Part shown: positions 1,951 to 59,471 of the stretch, in pieces
Numbering within the stretch: position 1 is the first letter of the stretch
How the letters are laid out: each line of letters begins with the position of its first letter
From: a bacterium
Lineage (GTDB): Bacteria > UBA8248
Length of the DNA: 64,000 bases
Assembly: GCA_963692865.2 (NCBI GenBank)
Contig: OY843592.1
Coordinates: 3,584,001-3,648,000 of the forward strand
Reading direction: 5' to 3'
Notes under the pieces: model-generated
Told to the model about the DNA's origin: nothing
Seen by the model: the letters and a program-made list of their open reading frames with translations, nothing else
Databases searched by the model: none
Program-made: the position numbers and the translations under genes

Positions 1951-2273
1951 GGGGTTGTTGAAAAAGTCCCCCAAGAGGGAATAATGCCCCAAAGAACACC
2001 GCCGAATGCGGGAAGATGGTTTTGCTCCTCGCTTTTGCTCGTCATTCCGGCAATCATTCTCGCCCGATGAGGAAGAGAATGCGGAATCCAGAAATGTCCC
2101 CCGTGGGACATTTCACCTTGCCTTTTAGACTTTGCTCTTCGCCTTCTCCCATCCGGGCAGTGAGAACATGAAATGCCGGATCGCCTTGATCCTCATCGGT
2201 TCTGGATTCCGGCCTTCGCCGGAATGACGGCGGTGGACAATTCCGATCGAGGAGGGACTTTTTCAACAGCCCC
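1951..2273. mobile_element. Non-autonomous TIR mini-element (MITE-like) carrying a CGTC-type REP doublet
   Basis: GGGGTTGTTGAAAAAGTCCC at 1951 and GGGACTTTTTCAACAGCCCC ending at 2273; internal GTCATTCCGGC...GCCGGAATGAC (2041-2228); flanks CTACG/TTACG. Confidence 0.7.
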
Positions 2274-3452
2274 TTACGCGCCCAGCTTCTCGGCCATCCA
2301 GTCCGCCATGTAGCCCACGACGGGGGCAATGTAGTCCATGTGGCAATGCTGGGAGCCGCCGTCGGTCCCCTTGTAGACCCGCAAGGTCTTGTCCTTCGAG
2401 CCCGCCGCCCTGTAGAGCGATTCCGCATCCGCCAGCGGGATTTGCTGATCGTCCTCCCCGTGCACGAGCAGGAAGGGGCACTTCATCCGCTGCACCACGC
2501 CGTCCAGCCGGAAGCCCTCGAGTTTCTCCAGGCCCTCTTCCGCCGTCTTGACGTTGAAGCTCCACGCCAGGTGATTCCCCGGCGAGGGAAGCTGAATCCT
2601 GAACGCCGCATCGATTCGCCTCTTCCATATCGCGTGGTAGTCCCAAATCGCGCCGTGGGCGAGACACGCCTTGAAGCGGCGCTCCATGCCGGCGGTTCTG
2701 GGCGCGTAGTATCCCCCCAGGCTCGACGCCATGATGCCCGCACGCTTCGCGTTCACATCCTTGCGCTTCTCCAGCCAGTCGAGTATTGCCGAGCCCGCCA
2801 CCTCGTAGTCGTGCCTCAGATATATCTTGCGAAAGCGGATGGCCTCGCCCACGCCCGGGCTGTCGACCACCACCACGCTCATGCCGCGCCGGGCGAGTTC
2901 GCGCGCCGAGATGACCATGGGCGATTCCTTGGTGCCGTCGAAACCTGAATACAGCACGACAACAGGGGGTCTCGATTTGCGCGTGTTCTCCGCATGGACG
3001 AAATAGCCGGGCAAGGATTTGCCCCCCTCGAAGGGGATATCGACGATCTCCGCCCTGGGACTGTCGTTTAAGCGGATGTAGCGCTTGAAGCTGTCGATGG
3101 ATTTCCGGTAGACGCCCTGCGAAGCATTGTCCTTCGGGAAGCGGAAGCGATCCGCCATCTGGTGATAGGTGGAAGAGCGGCAGAAATGGCCCGCCGCCGT
3201 CAGGGTCTTGCCGCGCCGCTGCGCCGCCACACCCATCGCGCGAATGCGGTCGCCCATGCGTTTCCACTCCTCGTACCAGAGTTCGTCGTTGCCGACATCT
3301 TTATCGAGATTCCGGCAGACCTCGAAAATCTCCGCCGGGTCGGCACCGCCGCCCGCCACGCGCATCAGGCCCATGGAGGTGATGAACGACCAGCGATAAT
3401 TGTCTGGGAAATAGGTGAACCAGGGAATCTTGCGAACCGCTTTGACGACCAT
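2274..3452 (-). CDS. Alpha/beta hydrolase, 2,6-dihydroxypseudooxynicotine-hydrolase/FrsA-like
   Basis: GFDGTKE, DSPGVGE, SSLGGYYAPR, HGEDD and terminal GSQHC motifs. Confidence 0.8.
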   Translation of the reverse strand: MVVKAVRKIPWFTYFPDNYRWSFITSMGLMRVAGGGADPAEIFEVCRNLDKDVGNDELWYEEWKRMGDRIRAMGVAAQRRGKTLTAAGHFCRSSTYHQMADRFRFPKDNASQGVYRKSIDSFKRYIRLNDSPRAEIVDIPFEGGKSLPGYFVHAENTRKSRPPVVVLYSGFDGTKESPMVISARELARRGMSVVVVDSPGVGEAIRFRKIYLRHDYEVAGSAILDWLEKRKDVNAKRAGIMASSLGGYYAPRTAGMERRFKACLAHGAIWDYHAIWKRRIDAAFRIQLPSPGNHLAWSFNVKTAEEGLEKLEGFRLDGVVQRMKCPFLLVHGEDDQQIPLADAESLYRAAGSKDKTLRVYKGTDGGSQHCHMDYIAPVVGYMADWMAEKLGA

Positions 3453-3681
3453 GCGCGCTCTCCTCGTATGTCGATATGTGGAACCGCTCCCTTTGATGAT
3501 GCGGCCAAGTATACGCGAGATGATCCTCTTCTTGGAATCGGGTTATGATTCGCAGGTCTTTTCCGGCTATGGTCTTTTCAGCGCATCACACTCAGGGAGT
3601 TTATTAGGGTACCGTTCCCGCTTTCCCACAAGCGTAGCGAGCAACCCTTATCAATTATCCATCACTATAGAGGAGTCATAC

Positions 3682-4098
3682 ATGCCATTTTACAGCACCG
3701 AGACCATCGAGAACGTACAGCTCCGCACGGGAAACCCGGGCGAGTACAAGCCCCTGGCCGGGGAGTTCATGAAGGCGGGCGTCGTCACCTACCGAAAGGG
3801 TACGGGCTCCAAGCCCCACTGGCACAACAACGAGGAGCAATACATCTACGTCATCGAGGGCAAGCGCTACATGCGCCTGGGCGATGAGGAGCGCATCATC
3901 GGCCCCGGCGACATCGTCCACATCCCCCGGGGCACGCTCCACGGCGGCAGGACGCTCACCGAAAAGGCGGTGATGTTCGTGGCGAAATCCCCCGCCGAAG
4001 ACCCCGACCTGGGGGCCGACCACCATTACCCGGACGATCTGGCCGACATCATCGCGCACCTCGACGCCAAGGCGGAGGAGCTTTACGGGAAGGTGTAG
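3682..4098 (+). CDS. Cupin domain protein
   Basis: PHWHNNEEQ and PGDIVHIPRGTLH cupin motifs; start moved to ATG 3682 after a GAGGAG RBS. Confidence 0.85.
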   Translation: MPFYSTETIENVQLRTGNPGEYKPLAGEFMKAGVVTYRKGTGSKPHWHNNEEQYIYVIEGKRYMRLGDEERIIGPGDIVHIPRGTLHGGRTLTEKAVMFVAKSPAEDPDLGADHHYPDDLADIIAHLDAKAEELYGKV

Positions 4099-4156
4099 GG
4101 TGGGGTCGCAATAAGAATTACTCCCCCTTGGGGGGTTGTTGAAATACCCTTCTCCG

Positions 4157-4297
4157 CCTCATCCTGAGTAGCGGCGAAACCGCGTATCGAAGGATGCCCG
4201 CTCTCCCCGGCGCGAGGCGTTCGACTCCCCCCGCCCTTCGGCAGGCTCAGGACAGGCCCCTTCGATACGCCGCCTACGGCGGCTACTCAGGGTGAGG
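4157..4297. repeat. Palindromic repeat doublet CCTCATCCTGAG...CTCAGGGTGAGG, preceded by a left TIR copy (about 4132-4147)
   Basis: Inverted arms; similar copies at 51265-51381 and 59231-59343. Confidence 0.8.
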
Positions 4298-4443
4298 AAA
4301 GAAGCGTCGTCGGTTTGCAGGGGCCGTTCGCGAACTGCCCCTGCTATCGCGTTCTGTCCCTGCGACAGCGATTCGCTTGCCGGAGCAAATCATCGGGAGG
4401 CGAACCAACCACCGCGCGATATGGCTTTGATATCGAGCCGCCC

Positions 4444-6438: not shown

Positions 6439-7329
6439 TCAATCACACCCCCGCACCTTGCGGATAAACGCCGCCACGGCTTGCCCTATTTCATCGGGGC
6501 AGTCCTCCTGCCCGTAGTGGCGGGTAGGTATGGTTATCTCCTCCTGGTTGGGCCACTCCCGGCAGAAGTCCCGCGCGGCCCCCGCCAGCGCGTGGCCGTA
6601 CTCGCAGTTGATGAAGAGTTTGGGCAAGTCCTCGCTCGCGCGCAGAAAATCGCTGTAGCGCTTCACGATCTCGTAGTTGTCGCGAGGCTCGCCCTCGAAG
6701 GGAATCTCGCACGCCCACTGGTGGGTCTGTCTTCTTTTCCGGGGATCCCGGGTAGGCGCGCGGTAGGCCTCTTTTTCCGCCGCGCTCAGATCGCGCACGA
6801 CCCCCCGCTCGAACAGCATGGCCTCGACGAAGAAATTATCCTCCATCACCATCGCGAGACCCCCCTCGCCACGCAGCGTCTTGAACTGCGCGACCCTGTC
6901 CTCGGGCATGTCCGTCCAGAGGCGCGGGCGCACCATGGACTCCATATAGGCCAAGCCGATGGCCTGCTCCGGGAACCGCGCGACGCGGTTGAACCCCAGC
7001 GCCGCGCCCCAGTCGTGGAGCACGAAAAACGCATCTTGCGTCGCCCCCACCCCCTCGAACCAGGCGTCCATGTAGGGGATGTGGTCCCGGTAGCGGCAGC
7101 CGCCGCCCGGAATGTTGTCCGACTCGCCGCTGTTCATGAGATCGGGCGCCAGGCACCTTCCTAACCCTTCCAGGTGGGGGATCACGTTCCGCCAGAGATA
7201 GGAAGTCGCCGGGTTGCCGTGCAGCAAAACGATGGGCGCGCCCTCCCCGACTTCGATATACGCCATCTCAGCGTCGAGCACTTTGACGCGCTTTCTTTGA
7301 TAGGGGTCATCAGGCGAGACGGGACTCAT
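6439..7329 (-). CDS. Haloalkane dehalogenase (subfamily II-like)
   Basis: HGNPATSYLWRN, HDWGAALG nucleophile, YMES acid and HYGQED catalytic His. Confidence 0.88.
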   Translation of the reverse strand: MSPVSPDDPYQRKRVKVLDAEMAYIEVGEGAPIVLLHGNPATSYLWRNVIPHLEGLGRCLAPDLMNSGESDNIPGGGCRYRDHIPYMDAWFEGVGATQDAFFVLHDWGAALGFNRVARFPEQAIGLAYMESMVRPRLWTDMPEDRVAQFKTLRGEGGLAMVMEDNFFVEAMLFERGVVRDLSAAEKEAYRAPTRDPRKRRQTHQWACEIPFEGEPRDNYEIVKRYSDFLRASEDLPKLFINCEYGHALAGAARDFCREWPNQEEITIPTRHYGQEDCPDEIGQAVAAFIRKVRGCD

Positions 7330-7373
7330 GGATGGCTCCAAAAATCAAGAATCACGACCCAAGGGCGCGCATC

Positions 7374-7541
7374 GGGGCCTGTTGAAAAAAACCTGCAATG
7401 AGGCAATAGGATTCCGCCTTGCCGAAGGGCGTGTAGGGGCCGCATACATGCGGCCCATGACGGGCGGCGAAAAAAGCCGGGTCGCATATATGCGACCCCT
7501 ACAAAAATAATTTTTTCCTCTCCGGGTTTTTCAACCATCCC
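7374..7541. mobile_element. TIR mini-element carrying a GTAG-type REP doublet
   Basis: GGGGCCTGTTGAAAAA...TTTTTCAACCATCCC; GTAGGGGCCGCATACATGCGGCCC / GGGTCGCATATATGCGACCCCTAC at 7433-7502. Confidence 0.65.
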
Positions 7542-7566
7542 TTTTAAGGAGGCGGAACGCCTCACC

Positions 7567-7938
7567 TCAGTTGGTCGTACCCTCTTCCTGCCTTGGGTCG
7601 ACGAGTTCCAGCCGCGCGTCTCCCTCCAGCATCCCAACCCGGTAGAGGGTATGCGCCAGAGACTGCGGAGACTTTAATACCTCGACTCGCTTGGAGACAC
7701 TCAAAAGGAGCCTTATTAAATCCACCATCCGGGCGACGGCGGCGCCGTCTACGAGTTCCAACTCCTCCAAGTCGAGGCTCGTGGCGTCGGCGCACAAGCT
7801 CTCGCCTTCCATCGCCTCCAGGACGCGGGCCGCGCCTTCTGAATCGAGATCGCCTGAGAGCGTGAAGCGTTCGCCCGAGACGGATTTTCCGAGTTCATAC
7901 CTGTGATGCGAGAGCAGGGTTTGTTGCCCGGAGTTCAC
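7567..7938 (-). CDS. STAS-like domain protein
   Basis: LSGDLD...LDLEELELVDGAA pattern typical of STAS domains. Confidence 0.55.
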   Translation of the reverse strand: MNSGQQTLLSHHRYELGKSVSGERFTLSGDLDSEGAARVLEAMEGESLCADATSLDLEELELVDGAAVARMVDLIRLLLSVSKRVEVLKSPQSLAHTLYRVGMLEGDARLELVDPRQEEGTTN

Positions 7939-7950
7939 CGTGAATGGGAC

Positions 7951-9039
7951 TTAATGGGAATGGACGCCCGTGAGCGGGAAATCGATGGGCCTGTTCTCTT
8001 TCGCGCTGTGCTCGATCGCCAGCGTCACCTCGAGCACGGTGCGGGCGTGTTCGGGAAGCGCGAGGGAGACGCTCCGGCCCATCGTCACGCGCTCCAGGAA
8101 CAGCCTCGTCTCATCGCGCATCGGCCCCCAGAAATCGCCCACCAGCCAGTCGCCCGCCATCATGGATTCAAGGAACACGACGTCCGAAGTCATGCCCTCC
8201 ACGTAGGGCGAGGGCACGCCCTTGTTCGTCGCCATGACGGCGTTTTTGTGCGAATCGTCTATCGCGATGGCCCCCTCGGTGCCCATGACTTCCAGGTCGA
8301 TGGAGGTGATGTTCGCCGGCCAGTTGTCGGGCAGTATCCACGAGCAGCCGAAGTTCACGGTGCCCCCGTCCTCGAAGGTGAGAATCGCCCACGCCCAGTC
8401 CCCGCAGCCCATCGGATGATGCGGGAACACCTTGCTTCCCCCCTGGGCGTAGACGCGCCTGGGTTTTCGGCCCTCGAAATACCACAGGCAGATGTCCACC
8501 ATGTAGGTGAGCGTGTCGGTGACGGGGCCGGCGTGCGCGGCGCGCTTGTATATCTCCGCCCCGTTGGTGGTGACGTTGTAGAGCGTGGCCCGCGCGGTCT
8601 GGAGATGCCCGAGCCGGCCCCGCTGAATCTGCTCCTTGGCGTTCAGGAAGCGCCGCCTCTGCCGCTGCGTGTAGCCGATGAAGAGCTCGGCGCTCGATTT
8701 CTCATACGCCGCGAGAATCCTGTCCGCATCCTCCAGCGACAGGGATATCGGCTTCTCGCAAAGCACGGGCTTTCCGAGTTCGAGCGCCCGGCAGACGGCG
8801 TCCGCGTGATCGAACTCCGGCGTCGAGACGATCACCGCGTCCACGTCCGGGTGCGCGATTACCGCCTCGTTGTCGCCGGTGTGGAAATCGGCCTGCGTTT
8901 CCTCGGCAATCATTTTCGCGCGCGCGGGGTCCCTGTCCGAAAGCGCGAGAAACTTCACCTCAGGCGACCCCGACGCCAAGTGCGCGCGCAGTCTCCCCAT
9001 GCGTCCCGAACCCACGATTCCCAAACCGATCTGCTTCAT
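7951..9039 (-). CDS. Gfo/Idh/MocA family oxidoreductase
   Basis: GIVGSGRMG, VSTP, HAD and CEKP motifs. Confidence 0.9.
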   Translation of the reverse strand: MKQIGLGIVGSGRMGRLRAHLASGSPEVKFLALSDRDPARAKMIAEETQADFHTGDNEAVIAHPDVDAVIVSTPEFDHADAVCRALELGKPVLCEKPISLSLEDADRILAAYEKSSAELFIGYTQRQRRRFLNAKEQIQRGRLGHLQTARATLYNVTTNGAEIYKRAAHAGPVTDTLTYMVDICLWYFEGRKPRRVYAQGGSKVFPHHPMGCGDWAWAILTFEDGGTVNFGCSWILPDNWPANITSIDLEVMGTEGAIAIDDSHKNAVMATNKGVPSPYVEGMTSDVVFLESMMAGDWLVGDFWGPMRDETRLFLERVTMGRSVSLALPEHARTVLEVTLAIEHSAKENRPIDFPLTGVHSH

Positions 9040-9043
9040 CTCA

Positions 9044-10135
9044 TCATCCCTGAAACGGCAGTTCGATGACCTCGCCGCCCCGGCGGGCGCTCTCTTCCAT
9101 AGCGAGGGTGAGCTCGAGCACGGCGCGGCCCGTCTCCGCGTCGCAAAGCGGCACGTCCTTGCCGGTGGTGACGCGCTCCAGGAAAAGCCTCGTTTCGTCT
9201 CTCATCGGCCCCACGAAATCGCCCACCGCCCAGTCCCCCGGCATGGCGGAACCCAGGAAGGCGACCTCCACCGAGGAATCGGGCGCATAAGGCGAGGGAA
9301 CGCGCTCGTTGCCCACCATCATCACGTCCTTGTGGCCGTCGTCGATGCGGATGGCGCCCTCGCTCCCGAAGATGTCCATGCTGATGGTCGCCACCGTGGC
9401 GGGCCAGTATTCGGGCAACGCCCAGTTGCCGCCCAGGCACGCCGCCGCCCCGTCCTCGAAGGTGACGACCGCCCAGCCGTAATCCCCCATCCCGTCGGGG
9501 TGATCGTGAAACACCTCGCTGCCCGCCTGCGCGTAGACGCGGACCGGCTTTCTGGGCTGGAAGAACCACAGCGCCATGTCCGCCATGTAGGTGATCTCGT
9601 CCGTGAAGGGGTTCGCGTGCGGGGCGCGCAGGTAGACCTGGCGCGCCGTGGGGCGCGTGTTGTAGATGGTCATGCGCGCGGTCATCACCTCGCCCAGGCG
9701 GCCCGCGTCGATGTGCTCCTTGATAGCGAGGAATTTCCGCCTGATCCGCTGCGTGTAGCCGATGTAGAGTTCCGCCCCGCCCCTGGCCTTCGACTCCATG
9801 ATCCTGTCCGCATCGGGCAGCGTGAGCGCGATGGGCTTTTCGACCAGCACGGGCTTTCCGGCCTCTAACGCCATGCAGATGGCCTCGGTGTGCTCGCCCT
9901 CGGGCGTGGAGACGATGAGGGCGTCCACCTGGGGGTGCTCGATGACTTCGCGATTATCCGAAGTATGAAAGGCCGCCTCGTTCTGCTGGGCCACGGCTCG
10001 GGCGCGTTCTGCGTCGATGTCCGATATGGCGAAAAAGTTCACCACCGGCGAGGTCGCCGCCAGATGCGCGCGGAGCGAGCCGATCTTGCCCGCGCCGATC
10101 AGGCCGATGCCGACCTCTTGCTTTTGAATCACCAT
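9044..10135 (-). CDS. Gfo/Idh/MocA family oxidoreductase (tandem paralog)
   Basis: GLIGAGKIG, VSTPEGEH and VEKP motifs; collinear with 7951-9039. Confidence 0.9.
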   Translation of the reverse strand: MVIQKQEVGIGLIGAGKIGSLRAHLAATSPVVNFFAISDIDAERARAVAQQNEAAFHTSDNREVIEHPQVDALIVSTPEGEHTEAICMALEAGKPVLVEKPIALTLPDADRIMESKARGGAELYIGYTQRIRRKFLAIKEHIDAGRLGEVMTARMTIYNTRPTARQVYLRAPHANPFTDEITYMADMALWFFQPRKPVRVYAQAGSEVFHDHPDGMGDYGWAVVTFEDGAAACLGGNWALPEYWPATVATISMDIFGSEGAIRIDDGHKDVMMVGNERVPSPYAPDSSVEVAFLGSAMPGDWAVGDFVGPMRDETRLFLERVTTGKDVPLCDAETGRAVLELTLAMEESARRGGEVIELPFQG

Positions 10136-10211: not shown

Positions 10212-10650
10212 GAGGTTGTTGAAAAAACCGGCAAGGGCCTTGCAAGCAGAGGGTTTGTAGGGACAGGCCCCCGTGCCTGTCCCTGTGAAGCGTAGCCACG
10301 GGGGGCAGGGCGGCTATCGGGGGCCGCCCTGCTACGGGGGAACGCGCTTTTGATCGTCATTCCGGCGAAAGCCGGAATCCAAGGACTTTGCATTTTGTTC
10401 TTTAGCCGTCATTCCCGGCGAATGAAAGAGGAGAGGGAATGCCTCGAATTATCCACCTCATCGGCTCTGGATTCCGGCTTTCGCCGGAATGACGGTGAGT
10501 AATTTCGATTTGAACTGGAAGGAATCTCCCGTCAGGACAGGCACGGGGGCCTGTCCCTACGTTAAACCACCCCGAAGGATAGGTTTCACTCCCCCTGCCC
10601 CGGTTGACTCCATTCGCCAAATCACGGAATCAGACTTTTTCAACAACCCC
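10212..10650. mobile_element. TIR mini-element with nested GTAG and CGTC REP doublets
   Basis: GAGGTTGTTGAAAAA...TTTTTCAACAACCCC with TCGA on both flanks; GTAG pair 10257/10560; CGTC pair 10356/10493. Confidence 0.72.
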
Positions 10651-12273: not shown

Positions 12274-12420
12274 GGGGTTGCTGAAAAAGCCTGATTTCTT
12301 GATCCGGCTTATGTTACCTACCGGGGAGGGAGAAGAACCACTCCCCCCTTGAGGGGGGAGTGAAATTCAAAAGCGCGCACGCAACCCAAAATCGATTTCC
12401 GGGACTTTCTCAACAACCAC
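12274..12420. mobile_element. Short (collapsed) TIR mini-element with a single CTCCCCCCTTGAGGGGGGAG palindrome
   Basis: GGGGTTGCTGAAAAAG...CTTTCTCAACAACCAC; both flanking segments are homologous to 22731-23083. Confidence 0.65.
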
Positions 12421-13578: not shown

Positions 13579-13894
13579 GGGATTGTTGAAAAAGCCCCTC
13601 AAAAAACAGAGAATGGATTTCTCGATCAGCATAAGCTTATGAATCAGCTCCCTCTTTGAGGGGCATTGGCAACTGATGAAAGGGAAAGAAGCACTCCCCC
13701 CTTGAGGGGGAGTCGACGAGGTAAGGGCGTAAGCCCGCAAGCGAGTCGGTGGGGGGAGCAAAACCAGAAAAGCAAAACACAAAAGCGCCCCCCACCGCAT
13801 CAGCCTTCGCACAAAACGCTCGGCTTCTGCGACTCCCCCTCAAGGGGGGAGTGAAATTTAGCGCGCTCCTTCTGTGGGGTTTTTCAACAGCCCC
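13579..13894. mobile_element. TIR mini-element carrying the CACTCCCCCCTTGAGGGGGAG...CTCCCCCTCAAGGGGGGAGTG repeat
   Basis: GGGATTGTTGAAAAAG...TTTTTCAACAGCCCC; inner repeat at 13692-13853. Confidence 0.7.
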
Positions 13895-16546: not shown

Positions 16547-16940
16547 GGGGTTGCTGAAAAAGCACTGATTTCTAAATTTGTCGTATGCAACCGGCCAACG
16601 AGAGAGAAAAATTACTCCCCCCTTGAGGGTTGTTGAAAAAGTCTCAAGAAGCGATTTTGGGTTGCTCGCACACTTTTGAAGTTCACTCCCCCTTTGAGGG
16701 GGAGTCGAAGAGGCCGAGCCCTTGGGCGAAGGCCGATTCGGTGGGGGGACATACCACAGAAAAAGCTCCCCCCACCAGTTCGCTTGCGGGCTTGCGCCCT
16801 TAGCTCACTGACTCCCCCTCAAGGGGGGAGTGAATTGCTCTCTCGCCGGATGACAAAAACTCTCAAGAGGGGAGTCGTTTCATAAGAATATGTTGATTGA
16901 GAAGTCTATTCCCTGTTAGGGGGGCTATTTCAACAACCCC
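16547..16940. mobile_element. Composite TIR mini-element (two left ends, one right end)
   Basis: GGGGTTGCTGAAAAA at 16547, second GGGTTGTTGAAAAA at about 16627, TTTCAACAACCCC at 16940; flanks CTGTG/CTGTA; inner repeat at 16684-16832. Confidence 0.65.
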
Positions 16941-18727: not shown

Positions 18728-18907
18728 GAGGTTGTTGAAAAAGCCCCTGAAGAGGGAGGAATTGCCGTCATTCCGGCGAATGCCGGAATCCAGAGCCGAC
18801 GAGGATCATGGCGAGCCAGCCTTTTACGTTCTCACCGATTGGATGGAAAAACAAAGAGCAAAGACAAAAAGACAAAGTCCCTGGATTCCGGCATTCGCCG
18901 GAATGAC
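18728..18907. repeat. Left TIR plus CGTC-type REP doublet (right TIR missing)
   Basis: GAGGTTGTTGAAAAAG; GTCATTCCGGCGAATGCCGGAATCC...GGATTCCGGCATTCGCCGGAATGAC; spacer homologous to the reverse complement of 2041-2228. Confidence 0.75.
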
Positions 18908-18915
18908 GAACAAAA

Positions 18916-20704: not shown

Positions 20705-21140
20705 GGGGCTGTTGAAAAAGCACCTTTAAGGAGGCAAAGGGGCGAACCCGCATGAACCCCGCCCCCCTCGTCGGAACCAACCCCCTATCCCCCCTTGTCG
20801 GGGTTGTTAAAAAACCTGTCCCTCTCGGATCAACTACGTTTTACCTGTAGGGGCCGCATACCATGCGGCCCGGCCTTTTCGCCTTCCCAATACGGGTCGC
20901 ATGATATGCGACCCCTACAATAGAAACGACAATGAAGGCGGTGGTCAATCCGAGCGAAAAGGGGTTTTTCAACAGCCCCTTGTCAGGGGTCAAACGCGAG
21001 TGAGGAACGAGCGTTTGCATAAGCCATTGATGAGAAACACATCGGCTCGCAAAACCTCCCTCTTCGGTCGGTTTTGACCCCTGTCAAGGGGGGGTAGGGG
21101 GGGTTGCCTTTACCCTGCCAGCGGGGTTTTCAACAACCCC
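20705..21140. mobile_element. Nested TIR mini-elements (outer 20705-21140, inner 20800-20979 with TTGTC duplication)
   Basis: Two left and two right TIRs; TTGTC at 20795-20799 and 20980-20984. Confidence 0.8.
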
Positions 21141-22730: not shown

Positions 22731-23083
22731 GGGGTTGTTGAAAAAGCCTGATTTCGCGATTCGGCGCATATTGCCTACCGGGGAGAGAGAAGAATCACTC
22801 CCCCCTTGAGGGGGAGTAGCAGAAGCCGAGCGGTTTGTGCGAAGGCTGATGCGTGGGGGGTCAAACGCGAGTGAGGAACGAGCGTTTGCAAAGCCATCAA
22901 TGAGAAATACATCGGAACGCAATTCCTCGCTCCTCGCTCGGAATTGACCCCCCACCAACTCGCCTGCGGGCTTCGCCCTTGCCTCGTTGTCGGCCTTCCC
23001 GATTAGAGAAGGCCGACCCTCAAAAGGGGGGAGTGAAATTCAAAAGCGTGTGCGCAACTCAAAATTGCTTCCCGGGGCTTTTT
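22731..23083. mobile_element. Expanded TIR mini-element (right TIR truncated)
   Basis: GGGGTTGTTGAAAAAGCCTGATTTC left end; inner repeat at 22796-23035; right segment matches 12360-12410. Confidence 0.65.
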
Positions 23084-23188
23084 AGGGAGTAAAGGGGACT
23101 GGAAAAGCAATCCCCCCTTGTCGTCAGGGGAGGTAGGGGGGGTTGCTTTTCGATGAGGGGATCCTCCCGCATCAATCGGGTTTGGTCT

Positions 23189-28679: not shown

Positions 28680-28911
28680 CGTAAGTCAGACATATATGTC
28701 TGACATATCATGCGGCCCTGCCTTTCCTTCACAATACGGGTCGCATGATATGCGACCCGTATTTTCATGCCTCCCACAAATGGGCCGCATGATATGCGGC
28801 CCCTACAAACCCCTCTGCTTTTCTCCTGCGCGGCTTTTTCAACAACCCCGACAAGGGGGGGGGTAGGGGGGGGTTGCCTTTACCCTGTCGGGGGGCTTTT
28901 TCAACGGCCCC
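28680..28911. repeat. REP hairpin cluster with two right-hand TIR copies
   Basis: GTCAGACATATATGTCTGAC and GCATGATATGC hairpins; TTTTTCAACAACCCC (to 28849) and TTTTTCAACGGCCCC (to 28911); 3' part matches 21085-21140. Confidence 0.75.
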
Positions 28912-41417: not shown

Positions 41418-41437
41418 CGAACCGGACATAAAATTGT

Positions 41438-42363: not shown

Positions 42364-42367
42364 CTCC

Positions 42368-44773: not shown

Positions 44774-44866
44774 GGGGACGAGAAGCGTTTCGCGCACAGG
44801 TCATTCTCTTTTCCGTATCACCACCTCATTCGATAAAATTGTTCCTGCCCCGCTGATACGACGACG

Positions 44867-46867: not shown

Positions 46868-46900
46868 GGATCGACGCTTCGAAGCGTTTCTGAAACGCCT

Positions 46901-46936
46901 GCCCGGGCGGCCGGAAATCCGGTCGCCCGGGTTTTT
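46901..46936 (+). terminator. Hairpin with U-tract after the binding-protein gene
   Basis: GCCCGGGCGGCCGG-AAAT-CCGGTCGCCCGGGT followed by TTTT. Confidence 0.6.
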
Positions 46937-47015
46937 CCTCAAGACGTTTGACAAAGGCCGCGTTTCATCCTAGACATTGCACTCTTGCGACTTCCCCGTT
47001 ATCGAGGAGCGTGTT

Positions 47016-47996: not shown

Positions 47997-48027
47997 ACAT
48001 CCGTTTCGTCTCGGGAGAGATTTTTAA

Positions 48028-49257: not shown

Positions 49258-49269
49258 CGGAAAGATAAA

Positions 49270-50004
49270 ATGCCTATCCTGGAAACCAAAAGCCTGAGCA
49301 AGCACTTCGACGCCCTCGTCGCCGTGGACAGCGTGGACTATGCGGTCGATTCCGGCGAGCTGCGCTCCATCATCGGACCCAACGGCGCGGGTAAAACGAC
49401 TTTCTTCAACATGATTGCGGGCGACCTGCTCCCCACGTCGGGACAGGTCATCTTCGACGGCGAGGACGTATCGGAAGTACCCGCCCATGAGCGCTCCCAT
49501 CTGGGCATCGGCCGCACCTACCAGATCACCAATATCTTCCCGAAACTGAGCGTGCTGGAGAACATCCGCATCGCCGCGCAATCGCGCAAGATGACGTTCA
49601 ACCTCTGGTCGACCGTTCCCAGCCACAAGGAATTGCTTGAAAAGGCGGACCAGATAATCGAGCGCATCAATTTGACGGAAAAGCGCGACGAACTCGCCGG
49701 AACGCTCGCGCATGGCGAGCAGCGCTATCTCGAAATCGGGATCGCGCTCGCCACCGATCCGAAGCTGCTTCTACTGGATGAGCCGACAGCGGGCATGAGC
49801 CCCGAGGAGACGATCCAGACGGGCGAGTTCATCAAGGGCCTGGCCGACCCGCTCACCATCGTGCTCGTGGAGCACGACATGGAGGTGGTACTGGGCATTT
49901 CGGACAAAATCACCGTGCTGCACAACGGCGCCTTTCTCGCCGAGGGCACGGTGGAGGAAGTTCGCGCGAACGCCGAGGTTCAGCGCGTATACCTGAGGGA
50001 ATAA
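49270..50004 (+). CDS. livG: ABC transporter ATP-binding protein (LivG-like)
   Basis: GPNGAGKTT, DEPTAGM and VEHDM motifs. Confidence 0.92.
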   Translation: MPILETKSLSKHFDALVAVDSVDYAVDSGELRSIIGPNGAGKTTFFNMIAGDLLPTSGQVIFDGEDVSEVPAHERSHLGIGRTYQITNIFPKLSVLENIRIAAQSRKMTFNLWSTVPSHKELLEKADQIIERINLTEKRDELAGTLAHGEQRYLEIGIALATDPKLLLLDEPTAGMSPEETIQTGEFIKGLADPLTIVLVEHDMEVVLGISDKITVLHNGAFLAEGTVEEVRANAEVQRVYLRE

Positions 50005-50708
50005 TGCTCGAAGTCGATTCCATCAACACGTTTTACGGTTTGAGCCACGTGCTTCACGACCTGAGCCTCAAGGTGGGCGAAGGCGAGGCCGTGGCCTTCC
50101 TCGGCAGGAACGGGGCGGGCAAATCCACCACCATGAAGACGGTTATGGGTCTGCTGACGCCCAGCACCGGCAAAATCACCATGGAGGGAGCCGACATCAC
50201 CGAAGCGGAGGCGCACACCGTCTCGCTCGCGGGGATTTCATGGATCCCGGAAGATCGCCAGGTGTTCACCAACCTAACCGTGTATGAAAACCTTAAAATC
50301 AGCCGCATCCCCATTGACGGCGCGAAGGACCTGGACGCGCACCTCGACTGGATTTTCTCCCTCTTCCCGCGTCTCAAGGAACGCATCAACAACAAGGGGA
50401 ACCAGTTGAGCGGCGGCGAGCAGCAGATGCTCACCATGGCGCGGGGACTCGGCACGGAGCCCAAACTCATCATGGTGGACGAGCCCACCGAGGGCCTGAT
50501 GCCCGCCTACGTCGAAACCATCGAAAACGTGCTGGTGGAGATCCAGAAAAAAGGCATCGCCATCCTGCTCGTGGAGCAGAACTTCCGCATGGCGCTCAGC
50601 ATCACCAAGCGCGCCTACCTCATCGAAAAAGGCGTCATCCAGTGGGAAGGCGCTTCCGCCGACCTGCTCGAAGACCAGGAAACCCGCATGCGGTATCTGG
50701 GCGTCTAA
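50004..50708 (+). CDS. livF: ABC transporter ATP-binding protein (LivF-like)
   Basis: GRNGAGKST, LSGGEQQM, DEPTEG and VEQN motifs. Confidence 0.92.
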   Translation: MLEVDSINTFYGLSHVLHDLSLKVGEGEAVAFLGRNGAGKSTTMKTVMGLLTPSTGKITMEGADITEAEAHTVSLAGISWIPEDRQVFTNLTVYENLKISRIPIDGAKDLDAHLDWIFSLFPRLKERINNKGNQLSGGEQQMLTMARGLGTEPKLIMVDEPTEGLMPAYVETIENVLVEIQKKGIAILLVEQNFRMALSITKRAYLIEKGVIQWEGASADLLEDQETRMRYLGV

Positions 50709-51244: not shown

Positions 51245-51435
51245 AGGGCTGTTGCCCCCCTCCGCCTCATCCTGAGTAGCGGCGAAGCCGCGTATCGAAG
51301 GATGTGCTCTCGCCCCGGCGCGAGGCATTCGACTCCCCTCGCCCTTCGATACGCCGCCTTCGGCGGCTACTCAGGGTGAGGAAAGAGGCGTTGGCGGTTT
51401 GTGGGAATCGCAGACGGGGCTTTTTCAACAACCCC
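51245..51435. mobile_element. TIR mini-element (left end truncated) carrying the CCTCATCCTGAG doublet
   Basis: AGGGCTGTTG...TTTTTCAACAACCCC; inner doublet at 51265-51381. Confidence 0.6.
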
Positions 51436-54726: not shown

Positions 54727-54810
54727 ACCTCGACTTAGGTGGAGATACCGGAAAACAACCCGGCCATGATACGCTAGAGCACCCGATTCGTTAAGGGAGA
54801 AGGAGACCCG

Positions 54811-56079
54811 ATGCCGCACCCCGATTTCGAGCGCTGCGCTCGCCACATTACCGCCGACGCCGTGCTTGAGTTGCTGAGCGGCATGGTGGACATTGCAAGC
54901 CCTACGGGCGGAGAGACCGCAATGGCGCGCTATCTGGTGGAGCGCATGGCGCGCGCGGGGCTGGAGACCCGGCTGCAGGAAGTCGATCCCGGAAGGCCGA
55001 ACGCGGTCGGCGTACGCGAGGGATCGGGCGACGGCGTCAACCTGCTCCTCACGGGCCACATGGACACCTCCTACGACGGGAACGAGGACTACCTGAGCGG
55101 CGAAGGCTTCAAGCCCAGGGCCGTCCACCGGGACGGCTGGTTGTGGGGTCTCGGCGCCAACAACATGAAGAGCGGCCTTGCGGGCGCGCTGGCGGCCGTC
55201 GAGGCCATCTGCAGCGAAAACGTCGTGCTTCGCGGCGACCTCTCCCTCGCGGGCGTGGTGGGCGAGATAGAAAAAGCGCCCGTGGATGAATTCAAGGGTC
55301 AATCCTTCTCGGGCTACGGGACGGGCACGCGGCATCTCATCCTGCACGGTGAGACGGCGGATTGCGCCATCCTCGCCGAGCCGACGGGGCTCAAGGTCTC
55401 GAACGCGAACATGGGCGTCGTGTGGGCGAAGATCACCGCGAGCGGCACGATAAGCCACAGCGTCTTCTCGAATCGACCGGGGGTCGTGAACGCCGTGCGC
55501 GCCATCCACAAGATTCAAAGCGCCGTCGAGGCATGGATTCCCGATTACGAGGCGAGGCACGCCTGCATGGGCGAGCGCCCCAACGTAACGATAGCCGCCG
55601 TCCGGGGCGGGTGGCCCTGGCGGTTATCCCGAAACCCCGCCGAGGCGAGTCTTTATCTGGACATCCGCACCGTGCCGGGGCAAAGCACCGAAGACATCAA
55701 GCGCGAACTGCGCGCCGTACTGGATGGCGTCTCGGACGAAGCCGGGCGGACGTCGCTAACGTTCTACGTGAACGACCCGCCCACCCTGCTCGACCCGGAC
55801 GCGCCCCTCGTCCAGGCCGCGCTCCGGGCGCACGAAGAAGTGACGGGCGAGGCGACTGCGCCCGTCATCAGGCGGCCCGCAGCCGATTCCACGCATTTCA
55901 ACCGCTACGGCATCCCGTGCGTCTGCTACGGTCCCGGCGGGCGCATGCACCCTGAAGCTGAGAAGCAAGGCTTGATGCACGCCGTGGGCGAGCATGTGCT
56001 CGTAAACGACGTGGCGACGGCGGCCAGGGTCTATCTCGCCGCCGCGCTCTCGATCTGCAGCGAGCGCGCTCTTTCATAA
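54811..56079 (+). CDS. M20 family metallo-hydrolase (ArgE/DapE-like)
   Basis: SPTGGE, GHMDT, GLGANNMKSG, AEPT and GEHV motifs. Confidence 0.85.
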   Translation: MPHPDFERCARHITADAVLELLSGMVDIASPTGGETAMARYLVERMARAGLETRLQEVDPGRPNAVGVREGSGDGVNLLLTGHMDTSYDGNEDYLSGEGFKPRAVHRDGWLWGLGANNMKSGLAGALAAVEAICSENVVLRGDLSLAGVVGEIEKAPVDEFKGQSFSGYGTGTRHLILHGETADCAILAEPTGLKVSNANMGVVWAKITASGTISHSVFSNRPGVVNAVRAIHKIQSAVEAWIPDYEARHACMGERPNVTIAAVRGGWPWRLSRNPAEASLYLDIRTVPGQSTEDIKRELRAVLDGVSDEAGRTSLTFYVNDPPTLLDPDAPLVQAALRAHEEVTGEATAPVIRRPAADSTHFNRYGIPCVCYGPGGRMHPEAEKQGLMHAVGEHVLVNDVATAARVYLAAALSICSERALS

Positions 56080-56164
56080 TGCGCGGCAATGTCAGGAATT
56101 GCAGAGGTTTGAGGAGGTGGACGCTTCCACCTCACGTTCAGAATAGACGGATAAGGAAACCCGT

Positions 56165-57340
56165 ATGGATTTCGAGCTGAGTGAAGAACAGAAAAGCCTG
56201 CAACTCCTCGCCCGAAAGTTCGCGATGGAGGAGATGCTGCCCGTCGTGGCCGAACTCGAAAAGCGGCCAGACGGAGAGGACAAGTTCGCCTACGACCTGG
56301 TGAAGCGAGGCGCCGCGCTCGGCTTCCACTCCCTGGGCGTGCCCGAAGCGCACGGGGGCGACGGGGCGAGCGTCCTCACGCAGTGCGTCGTCGTGGAGGA
56401 GCTCTCCGTCGGCTCGCCGTCGGTCTCAAAAGTGTACAGCCATAACTGGAAGGCGATAGCGGGCCTCATCGCCGTGGCGACGCCCGAACAACTCGCGCGC
56501 GTGATCCCCGCCTATCTCGAAGACCCGCTCTATTGCATCGGCATCGCCATCACGGAGCCGGGCGCGGGCAGCGACAACGCGCTCCCCTTCGATGCGGACC
56601 CGGCTGCAGGCCCCGCGCTGAGCGCGGTGCGCGAAGGGGATTCCTATGTCCTGAACGGCATGAAGCAGTTCATCGCCATGGGCGCGCAGGCGAAATACGT
56701 CACCGCTTTCGCCCGGACGGACAGGAGCGTCCCGTGGACGAAAGGCACGACGGGGTTCATGATCTTCCCGCCGCACGAGGGCTTCGAGGCCGGGAGGCTG
56801 CACGACAAGGTGGGACTCAGGTGCTATCCCCAGCACGACCTCATCTTCCGCGACGTGCGCGTGCCCGTGGAGGACCGTCTGGGCGAGGAGGACAGGTTCC
56901 AGGAGGGCAGAAGGAGCGTCACCAACGTGGGCACCGTGGAGGCGACGGCCACCTCGCTGGGCATCGCGCGGCGCGCCTACGATCTGGCGCTCTCCTACGC
57001 GCGCGAGCGCGTGCAGGGCGGAAAACCCATCATCGAGCACGACCTGATCGGCGCGCTCCTGCTCGAGATGTTCACCCGCCTCGAGGCCGCGAGAACGCTG
57101 CTCTGGCGCGCCGCCTGGGGCATCGATGAGGGAGTTCACGATCAGAAACTCGCGAGGGCGACCAAGGTGCTCGCCGTCGAGACGCTGAACTACATGGCGA
57201 CCAAGGCGGTGGAAGTCTGGGGCGGGATGGGCGTGATGAAGGACGCGCCGGTCGAGAAAGTCTACCGCGATGCGATTCAGCTATACCACATGGGCAACAC
57301 GAACCAGGTGAACGTCCTGAAAGCCCTGCCCCACCTGTGA
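56165..57340 (+). CDS. Acyl-CoA dehydrogenase family protein (atypical active site)
   Basis: AITEPGAGSD, LNGMKQFI, KVGLR, RVQGGKPI and GGMG motifs. Confidence 0.88.
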   Translation: MDFELSEEQKSLQLLARKFAMEEMLPVVAELEKRPDGEDKFAYDLVKRGAALGFHSLGVPEAHGGDGASVLTQCVVVEELSVGSPSVSKVYSHNWKAIAGLIAVATPEQLARVIPAYLEDPLYCIGIAITEPGAGSDNALPFDADPAAGPALSAVREGDSYVLNGMKQFIAMGAQAKYVTAFARTDRSVPWTKGTTGFMIFPPHEGFEAGRLHDKVGLRCYPQHDLIFRDVRVPVEDRLGEEDRFQEGRRSVTNVGTVEATATSLGIARRAYDLALSYARERVQGGKPIIEHDLIGALLLEMFTRLEAARTLLWRAAWGIDEGVHDQKLARATKVLAVETLNYMATKAVEVWGGMGVMKDAPVEKVYRDAIQLYHMGNTNQVNVLKALPHL

Positions 57341-57471
57341 GTTTATGCCGACATCGAACCGCCTCTTGTCTTTCGCGCGGTTTTTGCGGATTCTACCTGT
57401 AGGAGAAGTGCTCATTTGATGAGCGCTTCGCGGAAAACCGCCCTATATTGAAATTTGTGGGGGACGCATAC

Positions 57472-57742
57472 AGGGTTGTTGAGAAAGACTCGGGAAACGA
57501 TTTGGGGTTGCCCGCACGCTTTTGATGTTCACTCCCCCCTTGAGGGGGTCGGGCTTCCCTGGGGGAAAGCCCGACAGAGGCCGAGTCCTTTGGATGAAGG
57601 CCGATGTGGTGGGGAGAGGTTTGCTCTGTGGCATGTCCCCCCACCGATTCGGTTTCGGGTTTACACCCTCACCTCATCGACTCCCCCTCAAGGGGGGAGT
57701 GAAATCCCGCACGCTTCTTCTTTAGAGTAATTCAACAACTCC
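57472..57742. mobile_element. TIR mini-element inserted in a REP hairpin loop
   Basis: AGGGTTGTTGAGAAA...TTCAACAACTCC between REP halves GGGACGCATAC and ATGCATGCGTCCC; inner repeat at 57530-57701. Confidence 0.7.
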
Positions 57743-57895
57743 ATGCATGCGTCCCACGCCACAGAACCGAAATGGCGCTCGTTTGATCTACGCCGCCGGC
57801 ATGGACAGACTCGTAGGGACGCATATATGCGTGGGGCGGTCCCGAAGAGGAACCGCCGCCTACAGGTGAACCAGAAAGCATGAAGGAGGTTCGAC

Positions 57896-58288
57896 ATGAT
57901 AGAAAAAACCGAAGCGCAGTGGCGCGAACAACTCACGCCCGAGCAATACCACGTAACGAGGGAGGCGGGAACCGAGCGCGCCTTCAGTGGGAAATACTGG
58001 GACTGCCACGATGACGGCGTCTATGCGTGCGTGTGCTGCGGGACGGAGCTTTTCGAGGCCGAGACCAAGTTCGACTCGGGCACGGGCTGGCCGAGCTTCT
58101 ACCAGCCGCTCAAGCCCGAGAACGTGGGCGAGAAGGAGGACAACTCCTTCTGGATGCGCCGCGTGGAGGTGGTGTGTTCGAACTGCGACGCGCACCTGGG
58201 CCACGTGTTCCCCGACGGCCCTGCGCCCACCGGCCTGCGGTACTGCATGAACTCGGCATCGCTGGACTTGAAGCCCAAGTCCTCCTAA
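57896..58288 (+). CDS. msrB: Peptide-methionine (R)-S-oxide reductase
   Basis: [27 protein letters not shown] and RYCMNS motifs. Confidence 0.97.
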
Positions 58289-58320
58289 AAACAAGACACG
58301 GTCGAGGACGCACACATTAA

Positions 58321-58358
58321 AGGACGCTTCTCACACGAGCGGCGGGAAGCGTCTTTTT
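58321..58358 (+). terminator. Probable rho-independent terminator after msrB
   Basis: GACGCTTC...GAAGCGTC stem followed by TTTTT. Confidence 0.5.
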
Positions 58359-58383
58359 CACGGAATGACGGGAGAATAATTTC

Positions 58384-58827
58384 ATGACGATTCAACGCTT
58401 TCATAACGTATCGCTTACGGTCAAGGACGCGGACGCATCCTCAAAATGGTACGCCGAGAACTTCGGATTCGAGGTGGAATCGGATTCCGAGCGCACGCCG
58501 GATTTCTCGGAGCAGGTGACGGGCGTTCCGGGCGCGCACCTTCGCGTGGTGCACATGGGCGGCCACGGGCTGCACCTCGAACTCATGGAGTACAAGGGCG
58601 CGGCCGGCGATGCGGTGGACACCTCACCCAACAACGCGGGCTGCCTGCAGATCGGCTTCGTGGTGGATGACGCCGAAGCCCTTTATGAAAAGCTCCAGTC
58701 ACAGGGAACCGCCATGTGCTCCCCTGCCCCCGCCACGGTGCCGAGCGGCCCCATCCAGGGCTCCAAGATATTCTTCTGCAAGGACCCCGACGGCGTGGTG
58801 CTGAAGTTTCTTTCTATCAAGAAGTAG
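58384..58827 (+). CDS. VOC family protein
   Basis: SLTVKD...WY..FG, LELMEY, GFVVDD and DPDG motifs. Confidence 0.85.
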   Translation: MTIQRFHNVSLTVKDADASSKWYAENFGFEVESDSERTPDFSEQVTGVPGAHLRVVHMGGHGLHLELMEYKGAAGDAVDTSPNNAGCLQIGFVVDDAEALYEKLQSQGTAMCSPAPATVPSGPIQGSKIFFCKDPDGVVLKFLSIKK

Positions 58828-58854
58828 GGATTGGTGGATTGCAGGAGGTGCATC

Positions 58855-59471
58855 GTAGGGGCGGACCTAAGTGTCCGCCCTGTTTGCTTACGCTCTTGCC
58901 GTCCCTGCAAGGGCAAATCTATACGGCCGGCTCGCGAGCCGCCCCTACCAATCCCCTTTCCTCAATCGTTGGAAAAATTAACTCCCCCTTTGAGGGGGTT
59001 CACCGTCATTCCGGTGTGCGCCGGAATGACGAACAAACCGCACCACCTCGTGTAGTGACAGCCCCTCCTCGGGGCTGTCCCACAGGTCGCGACCCCGGAC
59101 AGGCGCTAGGGCCTGTCCGCTACGGTCGCCATCCGAGGGGGGATGCATAGGGGTCGCCGTCGGGATTGACCCACCCGCGCGGCATCGGGCCTCGCAAAAT
59201 ACTTGACGCCCTCATCCCGGTGCCCTGAACCCTCATCCTGAGTAGGCGCGTAAGCGCCGTATCGAAGGATGAGAAGGCATCTCTCCGGCGGGCGCGAATT
59301 TCGCCCTTCGATACGCCGCCTCCGGCGACTACTCAGGGTGAGGCGAAGCGGCGGGCTGCGCAGGACGAGGAGGGGGATTGCGCCGCATCGGACTTTTTCA
59401 ACAGTCCCTTGAGGGGGGAGTGATTTTTATTAACGCGACTATTTCTGGATTCCGGCGTGCGCCGGAATGAC
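58855..59471. repeat. Mosaic of GTAG REPs, CGTC REPs, the CCTCATCCTGAG doublet and a right TIR
   Basis: GTAGGGGCGGAC..GTCCGCCC (58855), GTCATTCCGG (59005), doublet 59231-59343, TTTTTCAACAGTCCC (to 59408). Confidence 0.75.

Follow-up and report, generated by a model that had tools for sequence, protein, structure and literature searches.

Unrelated palindromic repeats share IS1182-type ends and nest in hairpin loops within a 64-kb chromosomal window of a UBA8248 bacterium

Introduction

The intergenic regions of a 64-kb stretch of DNA from a bacterium of the GTDB lineage UBA8248 (GenBank assembly GCA_963692865.2, contig OY843592.1, positions 3,584,001 to 3,648,000; hereafter the window, with positions counted from its first letter) contain short repeats whose interiors are unrelated palindromes, among them repetitive extragenic palindromes (REPs), but whose ends are nearly the same. 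This arrangement raises the question of what has spread these repeats, and how some of them came to lie inside the hairpins of others. A first examination of the letters of the window (the original prediction) had proposed that they are miniature inverted-repeat transposable elements (MITEs) of the DDE type that spread the very hairpins in which they land. The computational analysis reported here indicates that the loci probably form a superfamily of non-autonomous MITEs, mobilised in trans by an IS1182-family DDE transposase encoded elsewhere. On the whole the original prediction was borne out, and of the three conditions said to refute it none applied. We observed shared ends, their pairing, their intergenic position, target-site duplications (TSDs), related empty sites and nested insertions, as well as autonomous insertion sequence (IS) copies in related genomes that bear these ends, one of them in a hairpin loop.

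Shared ends delimit short intergenic elements

The 15-mer GGGGYTGYTGAAAAA matched the window 22 times (at most 1 mismatch, both strands), whereas 100 dinucleotide-preserving shuffles contained 0.01 matches on average and never as many as 22. When up to 2 mismatches to GGGGTTGTTGAAAAA were allowed, 25 ends were found. The original prediction had named about 14 intergenic loci with such ends, and every coordinate that it listed does hold one: ends were confirmed at 1951, 4132, 7375, 10212, 12274, 13579, 16547, 18728, 20705, 20800, 22731, 28835-28849, 28897-28911, 57472 and 59394-59408, while the one at 51245 is only a truncated left end (GGGCTGTTG at 51246), the full right end of that element lying at 51421-51435. 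Seventeen of the 25 ends formed inward-facing pairs 147-439 bp apart, in 7 loci, and for 4 of the 8 unpaired ends (22731, 51421, 57472, 59394) the partner is visibly truncated or degenerate. The claim that the repeats spare genes was also sustained, as 24 of the 25 ends are wholly intergenic in a window of which intergenic DNA makes up 19%. The information content of the terminal inverted repeat (TIR) was high up to position 19, although positions 16-19 lay outside the search pattern, and was about zero beyond; the ends are thus conserved far better than the interiors, and the only feature common to all elements is the 18-19 bp TIR GGGGYTGTTGAAAAAGYCC.

Between these ends lie several unrelated palindrome families. 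The four described earlier were borne out, namely GTAG REP doublets, GTCATTCCGGC (CGTC-type) doublets, CCTCATCCTGAG long inverted repeats and CTCCCCCC-TTGA-GGGGGGAG hairpins, and we added a fifth, CCCCCTACCCCCCC-TTGACA-GGGG. The CTCCCCC-hairpin and CCTCATCCTGAG families have relatives over whole elements at 70-92% identity, and the other families are mosaics. No Pfam match was found among the scanned open reading frames (ORFs) that are listed within elements, whose interiors consist of palindromic repeats, so that the elements have the common TIRs and the short, non-coding character of MITEs. The elements are as follows (no strand is assigned to any of them):

1951..2273, TIR element of 323 bp; both ends perfect, interior a GTCATTCCGGC (CGTC-type) REP doublet
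4132..4330 (end approximate), CCTCATCCTGAG-type element with a left TIR only; the left end adjoins half of a CTCCCCC hairpin
7375..7541, TIR element of 167 bp that carries a GTAG REP doublet
10212..10650, TIR element of 439 bp; CGTC-type doublet with GTAG REPs on either side, flanks sharing TCGA (4 bp)
12274..12420, TIR element of 147 bp; a single central CACTCCCCCCTTGAGGGGGGAGTG hairpin
13579..13894, TIR element of 316 bp; two CTCCCCC hairpins, with an intact copy of the site that an autonomous IS (in segment L052, see below) occupies
16547..16940, composite of 394 bp; outer left end at 16547, inner left end at 16626, right end at 16926-16940 common to both
18728..18915 (end approximate), CGTC-type doublet element with a left TIR only
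20705..21140, outer TIR element of 436 bp, CCCCCTACCCCCCC-TTGACA-GGGG family; its two arms are inverted copies of each other
20800..20979, TIR element of 180 bp; GTAG REP doublet, nested within 20705-21140 (loop of the left-arm hairpin)
22731..23085, long CTCCCCC-hairpin element; left TIR perfect, right TIR truncated after CTTTTT
28680..28911, two elements of which only the right parts are left
51246..51435, CCTCATCCTGAG-type element of 190 bp; left TIR cut to GGGCTGTTG, right TIR perfect
57472..57742, CTCCCCC-hairpin element of 271 bp with degenerate TIRs, between the two halves of a GTAG-type REP stem
58996..59408, composite in a CTCCCCC hairpin; left TIR reduced to GGGGGTT, right TIR at 59394-59408, followed by TTGAGGGGGGAGTGA

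Several of these elements are related to one another or have relatives elsewhere. The interior of the element at 4132, whose left junction reads ACTCCCCCTTGG followed by GGGGTTGTTGAAATA, was 90-93% identical to 51255-51401; the element at 13579..13894 was 72% identical to 16626-16940 over 280 bp, and that at 22731..23085 was 88% identical to 12274-12357. Nearly full-length relatives of 51246..51435 were present at three loci of related metagenome-assembled genomes (MAGs), at 71-92% identity, and relatives of 57472..57742 (flanks GGGGGACGCATAC and ATGCATGCGTCCC) at 77-83%. The composite at 7375-7541 recurred as a TIR-plus-REP doublet at an unlinked locus of a related MAG (JAJDYR010000031 7389-7579; 135 of 197 aligned columns identical), a recurrence which suggests that TIRs and GTAG doublet may have moved as a unit. 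Flanks alike at 4 of 5 positions were found at 1951/2273 (CTACG and TTACG) and outside 16547/16940 (CTGTG and CTGTA). No right TIR was seen for the elements at 4132..4330 and 18728..18915. An impression by eye that 12274-12420 represents joined IS ends was dropped, as a shuffle test showed no similarity beyond the TIR.

The same ends in other genomes

A scan of genome contigs with GGGGYTGTTGAAAAAGYC returned at least 110 stretches, which became 104 segments (L numbers below) after overlaps were merged. Among the matches listed, ten genomes carried the motif densely (0.25-1.06 per kb of DNA fetched), of which five are MAGs labelled Nitrospinota or Nitrospinaceae (JAPPHK01, VXPH01, JAPOYD01, WTGD01 and CAYTSP01) and five are OZ244799.1, JAJDYR01, JAJEJD01, OZ242260.1 and OZ244713.1. 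Close relatives of the source of the window are represented by L019 (JAJEJD010000008), which corresponds to window positions 38805-50630, and by L070 and L071 (JAJDYR010000031), which correspond to 54741-61461, in both cases at about 85-92% identity. The window and the ten related genomes together form the core set used below, of 51 segments and 447,826 bp, and contain 226 ends at up to 2 mismatches. Whether the ends are paired beyond the window had been named as a check on the original prediction, and 78 nearest inward pairs, 63-462 bp long, were found in this set.

Other phyla contain the same ends as well. Short inward pairs of 39-239 bp were present in 20 segments among the matches listed, with labels that include Bacteroidales, Planctomycetota, Hydrogenedentota, Verrucomicrobiota and Alphaproteobacteria, while none of the remaining 34 segments outside the core group had a partner end. 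Because the same 18-mer bounds short elements with 5-bp duplications in several phyla, the end sequence is conserved across phyla.

IS1182-family transposases between the same ends

Two inward pairs were flagged at a spacing of about 1.45-1.53 kb, in L052 and L008. The element of L052 (OZ244713.1, 6001-7530; 1530 bp) encodes a transposase of 485 amino acids that scored 356.6 bits with the NCBIfam IS1182 family model (NF033551, cutoff 270) and contains the Pfam domains DUF772, DDE_Tnp_1_6 and DDE_Tnp_1, and L008 (OZ242260.1) encodes a relative of 430 amino acids with 308.5 bits against the same cutoff. A tblastn search of the window and all loci with the L052 protein revealed one more copy, 76% identical, in L042, a 2.5-kb contig of a MAG labelled Nitrospinota; this element, of about 1527 bp, starts with GGGGCTGTTGAAAAAGTCC and ends with TTTTTTCAACAGCCCC, two bases before the contig stops. 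All three are bounded by GGGGCTGTTGAAAAAG...CAACA(A/G)CCCC. Elements of the IS1182 family have TIRs of about 16-18 bp and a total length of about 1.3-1.95 kb, and L052 and L042 agree with the family in size, each having a single transposase ORF between the TIRs. The L052 and L008 proteins agree with it in model scores above the curated cutoff, the Pfam matches of the former being at the domain level. As a listed example, ISPse1 has 1653 bp, inverted repeats of 16/16 and direct repeats of 4 bp (PMC3281130). The ends had earlier been likened to those of IS5/IS1182-type elements, and the IS1182 half of that guess was the correct one for the transposases that carry them; the search for a transposase bounded by the same ends in the lineage, suggested at the same time, was answered by L042 in a Nitrospinota MAG, together with L052 and L008. 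No transposase was found in the window itself, either among its 57 ORFs with Pfam or by tblastn with the L052 protein, as had been noted at the outset; the autonomous IS with these ends was seen in related MAGs and not in the 64-kb window.

Two side observations concern these IS copies. At L042 1531-1600 the IS seems to interrupt the 5' part of an ORF (…MKPGVLTGGGDCPGLKAYT directly before the IS). L052 has another right end (GGGGTTATTCAACAACCCC) 167 bp past that of the IS (7531-7697), with CTCAAGGGGGGAGTGA behind it once more, so that one left end could pair with either of the two right ends. Tandem duplications of one end of IS1272 are mentioned in a passage of PMC5678879.

Target-site duplications and empty sites

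Transposition of elements with these ends should leave footprints in the flanking DNA, and we looked for duplications at 121 candidate pairs, which comprise all inward combinations within 40-1800 bp in the core set and include many false pairings. An exact 5-bp direct repeat lay immediately outside the ends in 12 of them, compared with 1.9 on average and at most 7 in 1000 random re-pairings; 4-bp duplications were found at 2 additional pairs and 6-bp duplications at another 2. The junctions are therefore enriched in duplications, which the original prediction had put forward as a check, and a duplication of fixed length is a feature of these elements even though many pairs lack one. In the window the clean case is 20800..20979, with the exact 5-bp TSD TTGTC on both sides and flanks that, as read from the sequence, continue like the uninterrupted sister arm of 20705-21140 (21051-21112). 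Among the elements of other phyla, 5 of 19 assessable pairs had an exact 5-bp TSD (ACAGC, ACTGT, GGCGT, ATCTT and GCAGT), 2 others conform when the flank is given one C from the terminal run, and 3 match at 4 of 5 positions.

Past mobility was also evident from a comparison of filled and empty sites. When the two 45-nt flanks of each of 117 pairs were mapped onto all sequences, related empty sites were found for 5 pairs (16 rows), in which the flanks lie side by side on uninterrupted copies and overlap by 5 bp, or by 6 or 8 bp at places where G-runs make the register uncertain. In addition, three intergenic regions, not resolved to the base, are filled in relatives of about 90% identity and empty in the window. 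L019 6001-6459 holds a composite of 459 bp with the TSD CTGAA, where the window counterpart (44776-44867) has 91 bp; JAJDYR031 3459-3848 is filled opposite window 56078-56147, and JAJDYR031 7324-7958 opposite 60144-60444. The proposed comparison of filled and empty sites in related genomes was thus successful for related sites of 5 elements, but yielded no orthologous empty site at base resolution.

In JAJDYR010000037.1 (393540-393580, L012), two elements stand tail to head, 5 bp apart (…CAACAACCCC TCCTC GGGGTTATTGAAAAA…). Such abutting elements would be the expected product of an insertion beside an existing end.

Hairpin loops as insertion sites

The 20 nt outside the ends were non-random, with C at 54-70% of positions -12 to -6, followed by a loop-like YTNAN. 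In the core set, CCCC plus 3-7 nt lay directly outside 64 of 224 ends, compared with 2.8% of all positions and 9.9% of positions that start GGGG, and the intervening loop bases were mostly TTGAG (14) or TTGTC (10). The same arrangement occurred at 6 of 25 ends in the window alone, against 4.3% of intergenic positions (binomial p=5.6e-4). Where both flanks are kept, the stem halves stand on either side and the loop is duplicated, as in tccccccTTGAG, element, TTGAGggggggg. Junctions had earlier been noticed in the loops of other palindromes, and these frequencies place that impression above background.

Such a loop also contains the autonomous IS of L052, the hairpin being GACTCCCCC-TCAA-GGGGGG, of the CTCCCCC...GGGGGAG type, and the junctions gactccccCTCAA(a) before and CTCAAgggggg after the IS. 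Seven intact copies of this site were found, two of them in the window, where both flanks of the IS map onto 13839-13844, and also onto the intact hairpin at 22805-22810, within 22731..23085.

Direct nesting was observed in four places in the window. The left arm of 20705-21140 is interrupted in its loop by the element at 20800-20979. The same architecture recurs at 28849, where the right end of a GTAG-REP element falls within the CCCC-GACAA-GGGG hairpin of another element, itself ending at 28911. The inner end at 16626, preceded by ACTCCCCCCTTG, is in the loop of a CTCCCCCC hairpin of the element that starts at 16547, and the outer flanks of 58996-59408 (AAAAATTAACTCCCCCTTTGA and TTGAGGGGGGAGTGATTTTTATT) are the two halves of a single hairpin. 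Moreover, 13 of the 22 C4-N(3-7)-G4 hairpins of the window are inside the 4,070 bp of the elements, which make up 6.4% of the window, and several of the remaining motifs are junctions made by insertion.

GTAG REPs and a RAYT-like gene

The GTAG REP doublets at 20846-20917, 7434-7510, 23189-23274 and 28681-28805 resemble REPINs (REP doublets forming hairpins), which are moved by REP-associated tyrosine transposases (RAYTs). The absence of a RAYT from the window, noted before, was upheld by tblastn with E. coli RayT, which gave no significant match there (best E=4.8). The same query led to a RAYT-like ORF of 209 amino acids in a MAG labelled Nitrospinota (L039 2466-3095, minus strand), so that the proposed search for RAYT genes did yield a candidate in a related genome. 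This ORF scored 65.5 bits with the NCBIfam model REP_Tyr_transpos, below the cutoff of 80, and 27.1 with Pfam Y1_Tnp (cutoff 23). GTAG REPs of the window type occur on either side of the ORF, and it includes a GTAG REP doublet in frame, between the HUH motif (MPNHIHGIV) and the Tyr motif (YIQNNP), an insert that may explain the low NCBIfam score. The GTAG REPs therefore probably belong to a separate RAYT system, judging from these sequences, and two mobile systems appear to interpenetrate. As the GTAG REPs have a likely mobiliser of their own, not every hairpin would have been spread by the DDE element. The earlier proposal that a DDE MITE spreads the hairpins gains support from the 13 of 22 hairpins carried within elements, but it must be narrowed for the GTAG REPs.

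Origin and spread of the elements

The reading that we favour supposes that the transposase binds the 18-19 bp ends and inserts the element with a 5-bp staggered cut, which would produce the 5-bp duplication. In this lineage, many insertions occupy the loop of short C-run/G-run hairpins (CCCC-N5-GGGG), the loop itself becoming the duplication, and since most such hairpins of the window sit in sibling MITEs, one element comes to lie within another and mosaic repeat nests arise between the genes. Because the first letters of an element are GGGG and the last are CCCC, its insertion into CCCC-N5-GGGG recreates this motif at either junction. The GTAG REP doublets (REPINs) and the CGTC-type doublets would be passenger modules, the GTAG type being most likely moved by a RAYT tyrosine transposase and co-carried once it lies between an end pair. 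We infer that the preference for hairpin or palindromic targets belongs to the transposase itself, and carriage of targets by the elements may feed back on their spread. A self-reinforcing loop can be proposed tentatively, with distinctly less confidence than the mobilisation in trans: one DDE transposase would serve a guild of unrelated MITE bodies that share only 19-bp ends and carry its preferred hairpins, the motif would be rebuilt at the junctions so that sites multiply away from genes, and REPINs between the ends would be movable by both RAYT and DDE enzymes. The excess of hairpins inside the elements, given above, is consistent with self-seeding of this kind.

Several observations weigh against this reading. 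Neither the window nor the 132 kb sampled from its two closest relatives (JAJEJD01 and JAJDYR01) yielded a transposase, and mobilisation in trans in this very genome is for that reason something that we infer. Beyond the TIR, the MITEs were not similar to the ends of the sampled IS copies (z at most 1.8; 67-915 of 1000 shuffles reached the observed score), so that they cannot be called deletion derivatives of these copies; an interior derived from a parent IS by deletion is common in MITEs, though not universal, and it was not found here. An exact TSD was present in a minority of pairs only (12 of 121, or 16 with the 4- and 6-bp cases); good window pairs such as 13579/13894, 7375/7541 and 12274/12420 have no TSD or one alike at only 4 of 5 positions, and some flanks are inverted and not direct (TTATC/GATAA, CATAC/GTATG, TTGAG/CTCAA), which simple duplication of a loop does not predict. 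Global alignments of orthologous intergenic regions (window with JAJDYR031, and JAJDYR037 and JAJDYR044 with OZ244799) gave no base-resolved empty site, because the intergenic DNA is too diverged and two sites are occupied by different elements. The sampled copies are old, the best within-genome pair of paralogues being 86.7% identical and most being at 65-85%, and signs of present activity were not seen among them. The MITEs of other phyla with the same ends do not lie in C-run hairpins, and the hairpin preference is thus not general for elements with these ends. IS1272, the hairpin-targeting member of the same transposase family, leaves no TSD and deletes part of the stem according to the passages cited (PMC4923244, PMC5678879), whereas the window system duplicates the 5-bp loop and keeps both stem halves. 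Finally, survivorship of harmless insertions could contribute to the pattern.

In its full form, that last explanation holds that the elements are IS1182-type MITEs without any targeting of loops, which insert anywhere and persist where they do no harm, in selfish repeats. The intergenic position of 24 of 25 ends already attests to strong selective filtering, the MITEs of other phyla with the same ends show their 5-bp TSDs at ordinary sites, outside any C-run hairpin, and the IS of L042 is at a non-hairpin site. Within intergenic DNA, however, a roughly 6-fold excess persists (24% against 4.3%), and it was the loop itself that was struck and duplicated, not the host repeats at large. An autonomous IS, that of L052, was likewise found in this loop, and hairpins are targeted by a studied member of the IS1182 family. 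We regard survivorship as an unlikely explanation of the whole pattern. A different order of events, in which the paired ends are pre-existing short palindromes chosen as landing sites by RAYT-moved REP doublets, follows the way in which Di Nocera et al. read similar arrangements of REPs and palindromes (PMC3733652). It draws on the RAYT-like gene of L039 with its window-type GTAG REPs, and on the identical end plus subterminal stretch (…TCGCTCGGATTGACCACCGCC) found before a CGTC doublet in one place (2259) and before a GTAG doublet in another (20965). It also draws on a bare 39-bp palindrome of both ends in CAWALO010000033, from another phylum, and on REP dimers within long palindromes, where a passage on H. 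neapolitanus gives GGGaaGCTT-GAAAaACC, which resembles the ends (PMC3733652). The duplications and related empty sites nevertheless flank the ends and not the REPs, many elements (12274-12420, 13579-13894, 51246-51435) are without any GTAG or CGTC REP, and full-length IS copies carry the same ends; landing palindromes may account for the origin of the interiors but not for the spread of whole units, and we consider them improbable as an explanation of the latter.

If the 15-19-mer were instead a functional site of the host under selection, such as a binding site of a nucleoid or regulatory protein or part of a terminator, its strictly intergenic position, its adjacency in one case to a stop codon (the end at 2273, next to the ORF at 2274-3452) and its far better conservation than that of the interiors would be expected. 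The same sequence is, however, the terminal repeat of transposase-bearing elements, it is accompanied by TSDs and empty sites, it bounds short paired elements in unrelated phyla, and no Rfam family matches the window, which together make a host function very improbable.

Relation to known systems

The reading of the loci as IS1182-type MITEs has a precedent in MITEPye1 of Paracoccus yeei, which has 18-bp TIRs and 4-bp direct repeats and occurs in 1-3 copies per chromosome (PMC11578231). The elements of the window resemble it in being non-coding and intergenic, in having TIRs as in IS1182-family IS, in their short direct repeats and in the mobilisation in trans proposed for them (PMC11578231). 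Copies of MITEPye1 are 96-100% alike, with one interior and 4-bp repeats, in the description cited (PMC11578231), whereas the system described here has 25 ends in 64 kb, at least five unrelated interiors for one TIR, 5-bp TSDs, copies that are 65-87% alike and nesting in hairpins. IS1272/TnSha1 of staphylococci, which belongs to the IS1182 family, inserts in hairpins or inverted repeats with little primary-sequence specificity (PMC4923244, PMC5678879), and some IS1182 members target palindromes according to a review cited in PMC4923244. The likeness to IS1272 lies in the transposase family and in the hairpin sites.

With REP-specific IS, the system shares the use of abundant extragenic palindromes as landing sites and the sparing of genes. 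REP-targeting IS of the ISPpu9, ISPpu10 and IS1397 type are full-length IS of other families (IS110 and IS3), and the elements with these ends do not belong among them, their transposase being of the IS1182 family. In contrast to REP-specific IS, which use REPs made by another system, the invaders here are mostly MITEs and the targets are largely borne by MITEs. REPs that serve as landing sites have been described for ISPpu9, ISPpu10, ISPa11, ISPsy8 and ISRm22 (PMC1525189). The GTAG-headed REP doublets, and the RAYT-like gene with such REPs in a related MAG, are as in REPIN-RAYT systems (cf. PMC2817692, PMC3733652), from which the TIR elements differ by their DDE-type ends, their TSDs and the many copies without a GTAG or CGTC REP. 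REP dimers inside longer palindromes were noted by Di Nocera et al., who in the passages cited did not link them to an IS family or study them in detail (PMC3733652).

IS1182 MITEs, the targeting of hairpins by IS1272 and the use of REPs as IS targets are therefore already known, and what is new is the scale, the varied interiors and the self-nesting; no description of this element guild or of its self-nesting was found in the open-access literature searched. On the reading that we favour, one transposase can sustain non-coding elements that are both numerous and diverse in an uncultured lineage and leave the genes intact, and the elements land in hairpins that they themselves spread. If the loop preference is a property of the enzyme, there would be within the IS1182 family a DDE transposase directed by structure or by a palindrome that, in contrast to that of IS1272, still yields an ordinary 5-bp duplication. 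The system would then exemplify, in nature, mobile DNA that produces safe landing sites for itself. The end of the L042 contig at the end of its IS suggests that the repeat nests break assemblies, and through these nests, genomes with 90-96% identity in the flanking DNA come to differ in their orthologous intergenic regions, which matters for binning and for the comparison of MAGs in this clade.

Other features of the window

A Pfam scan of the 57 ORFs revealed ordinary chromosomal genes, for example those for pyruvate dehydrogenase E1/E2, two clusters of Liv-type ABC transporter genes, DinB and an MFS transporter. Rfam at gathering thresholds gave no family, and ARAGORN no tRNA or tmRNA, in the window.

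Between two direct copies of a GTAG REP doublet of about 90 bp (23189-23274 and 28681-28761; 97% and 94% identity), the stretch 23189-28805 is low in GC (0.526 at 24-28 kb, against about 0.61-0.66 in the surrounding DNA) and encodes lipopolysaccharide-type glycosyltransferases (GT25 and GT4) and an FkbM methyltransferase. The stretch has the appearance of an acquired island, either inserted in a repeat nest or bounded by one. At 7951-10135, two adjacent paralogous genes for GFO/IDH/MocA oxidoreductases share a stretch of 109 nt at 78% identity, which is an ordinary tandem duplication.

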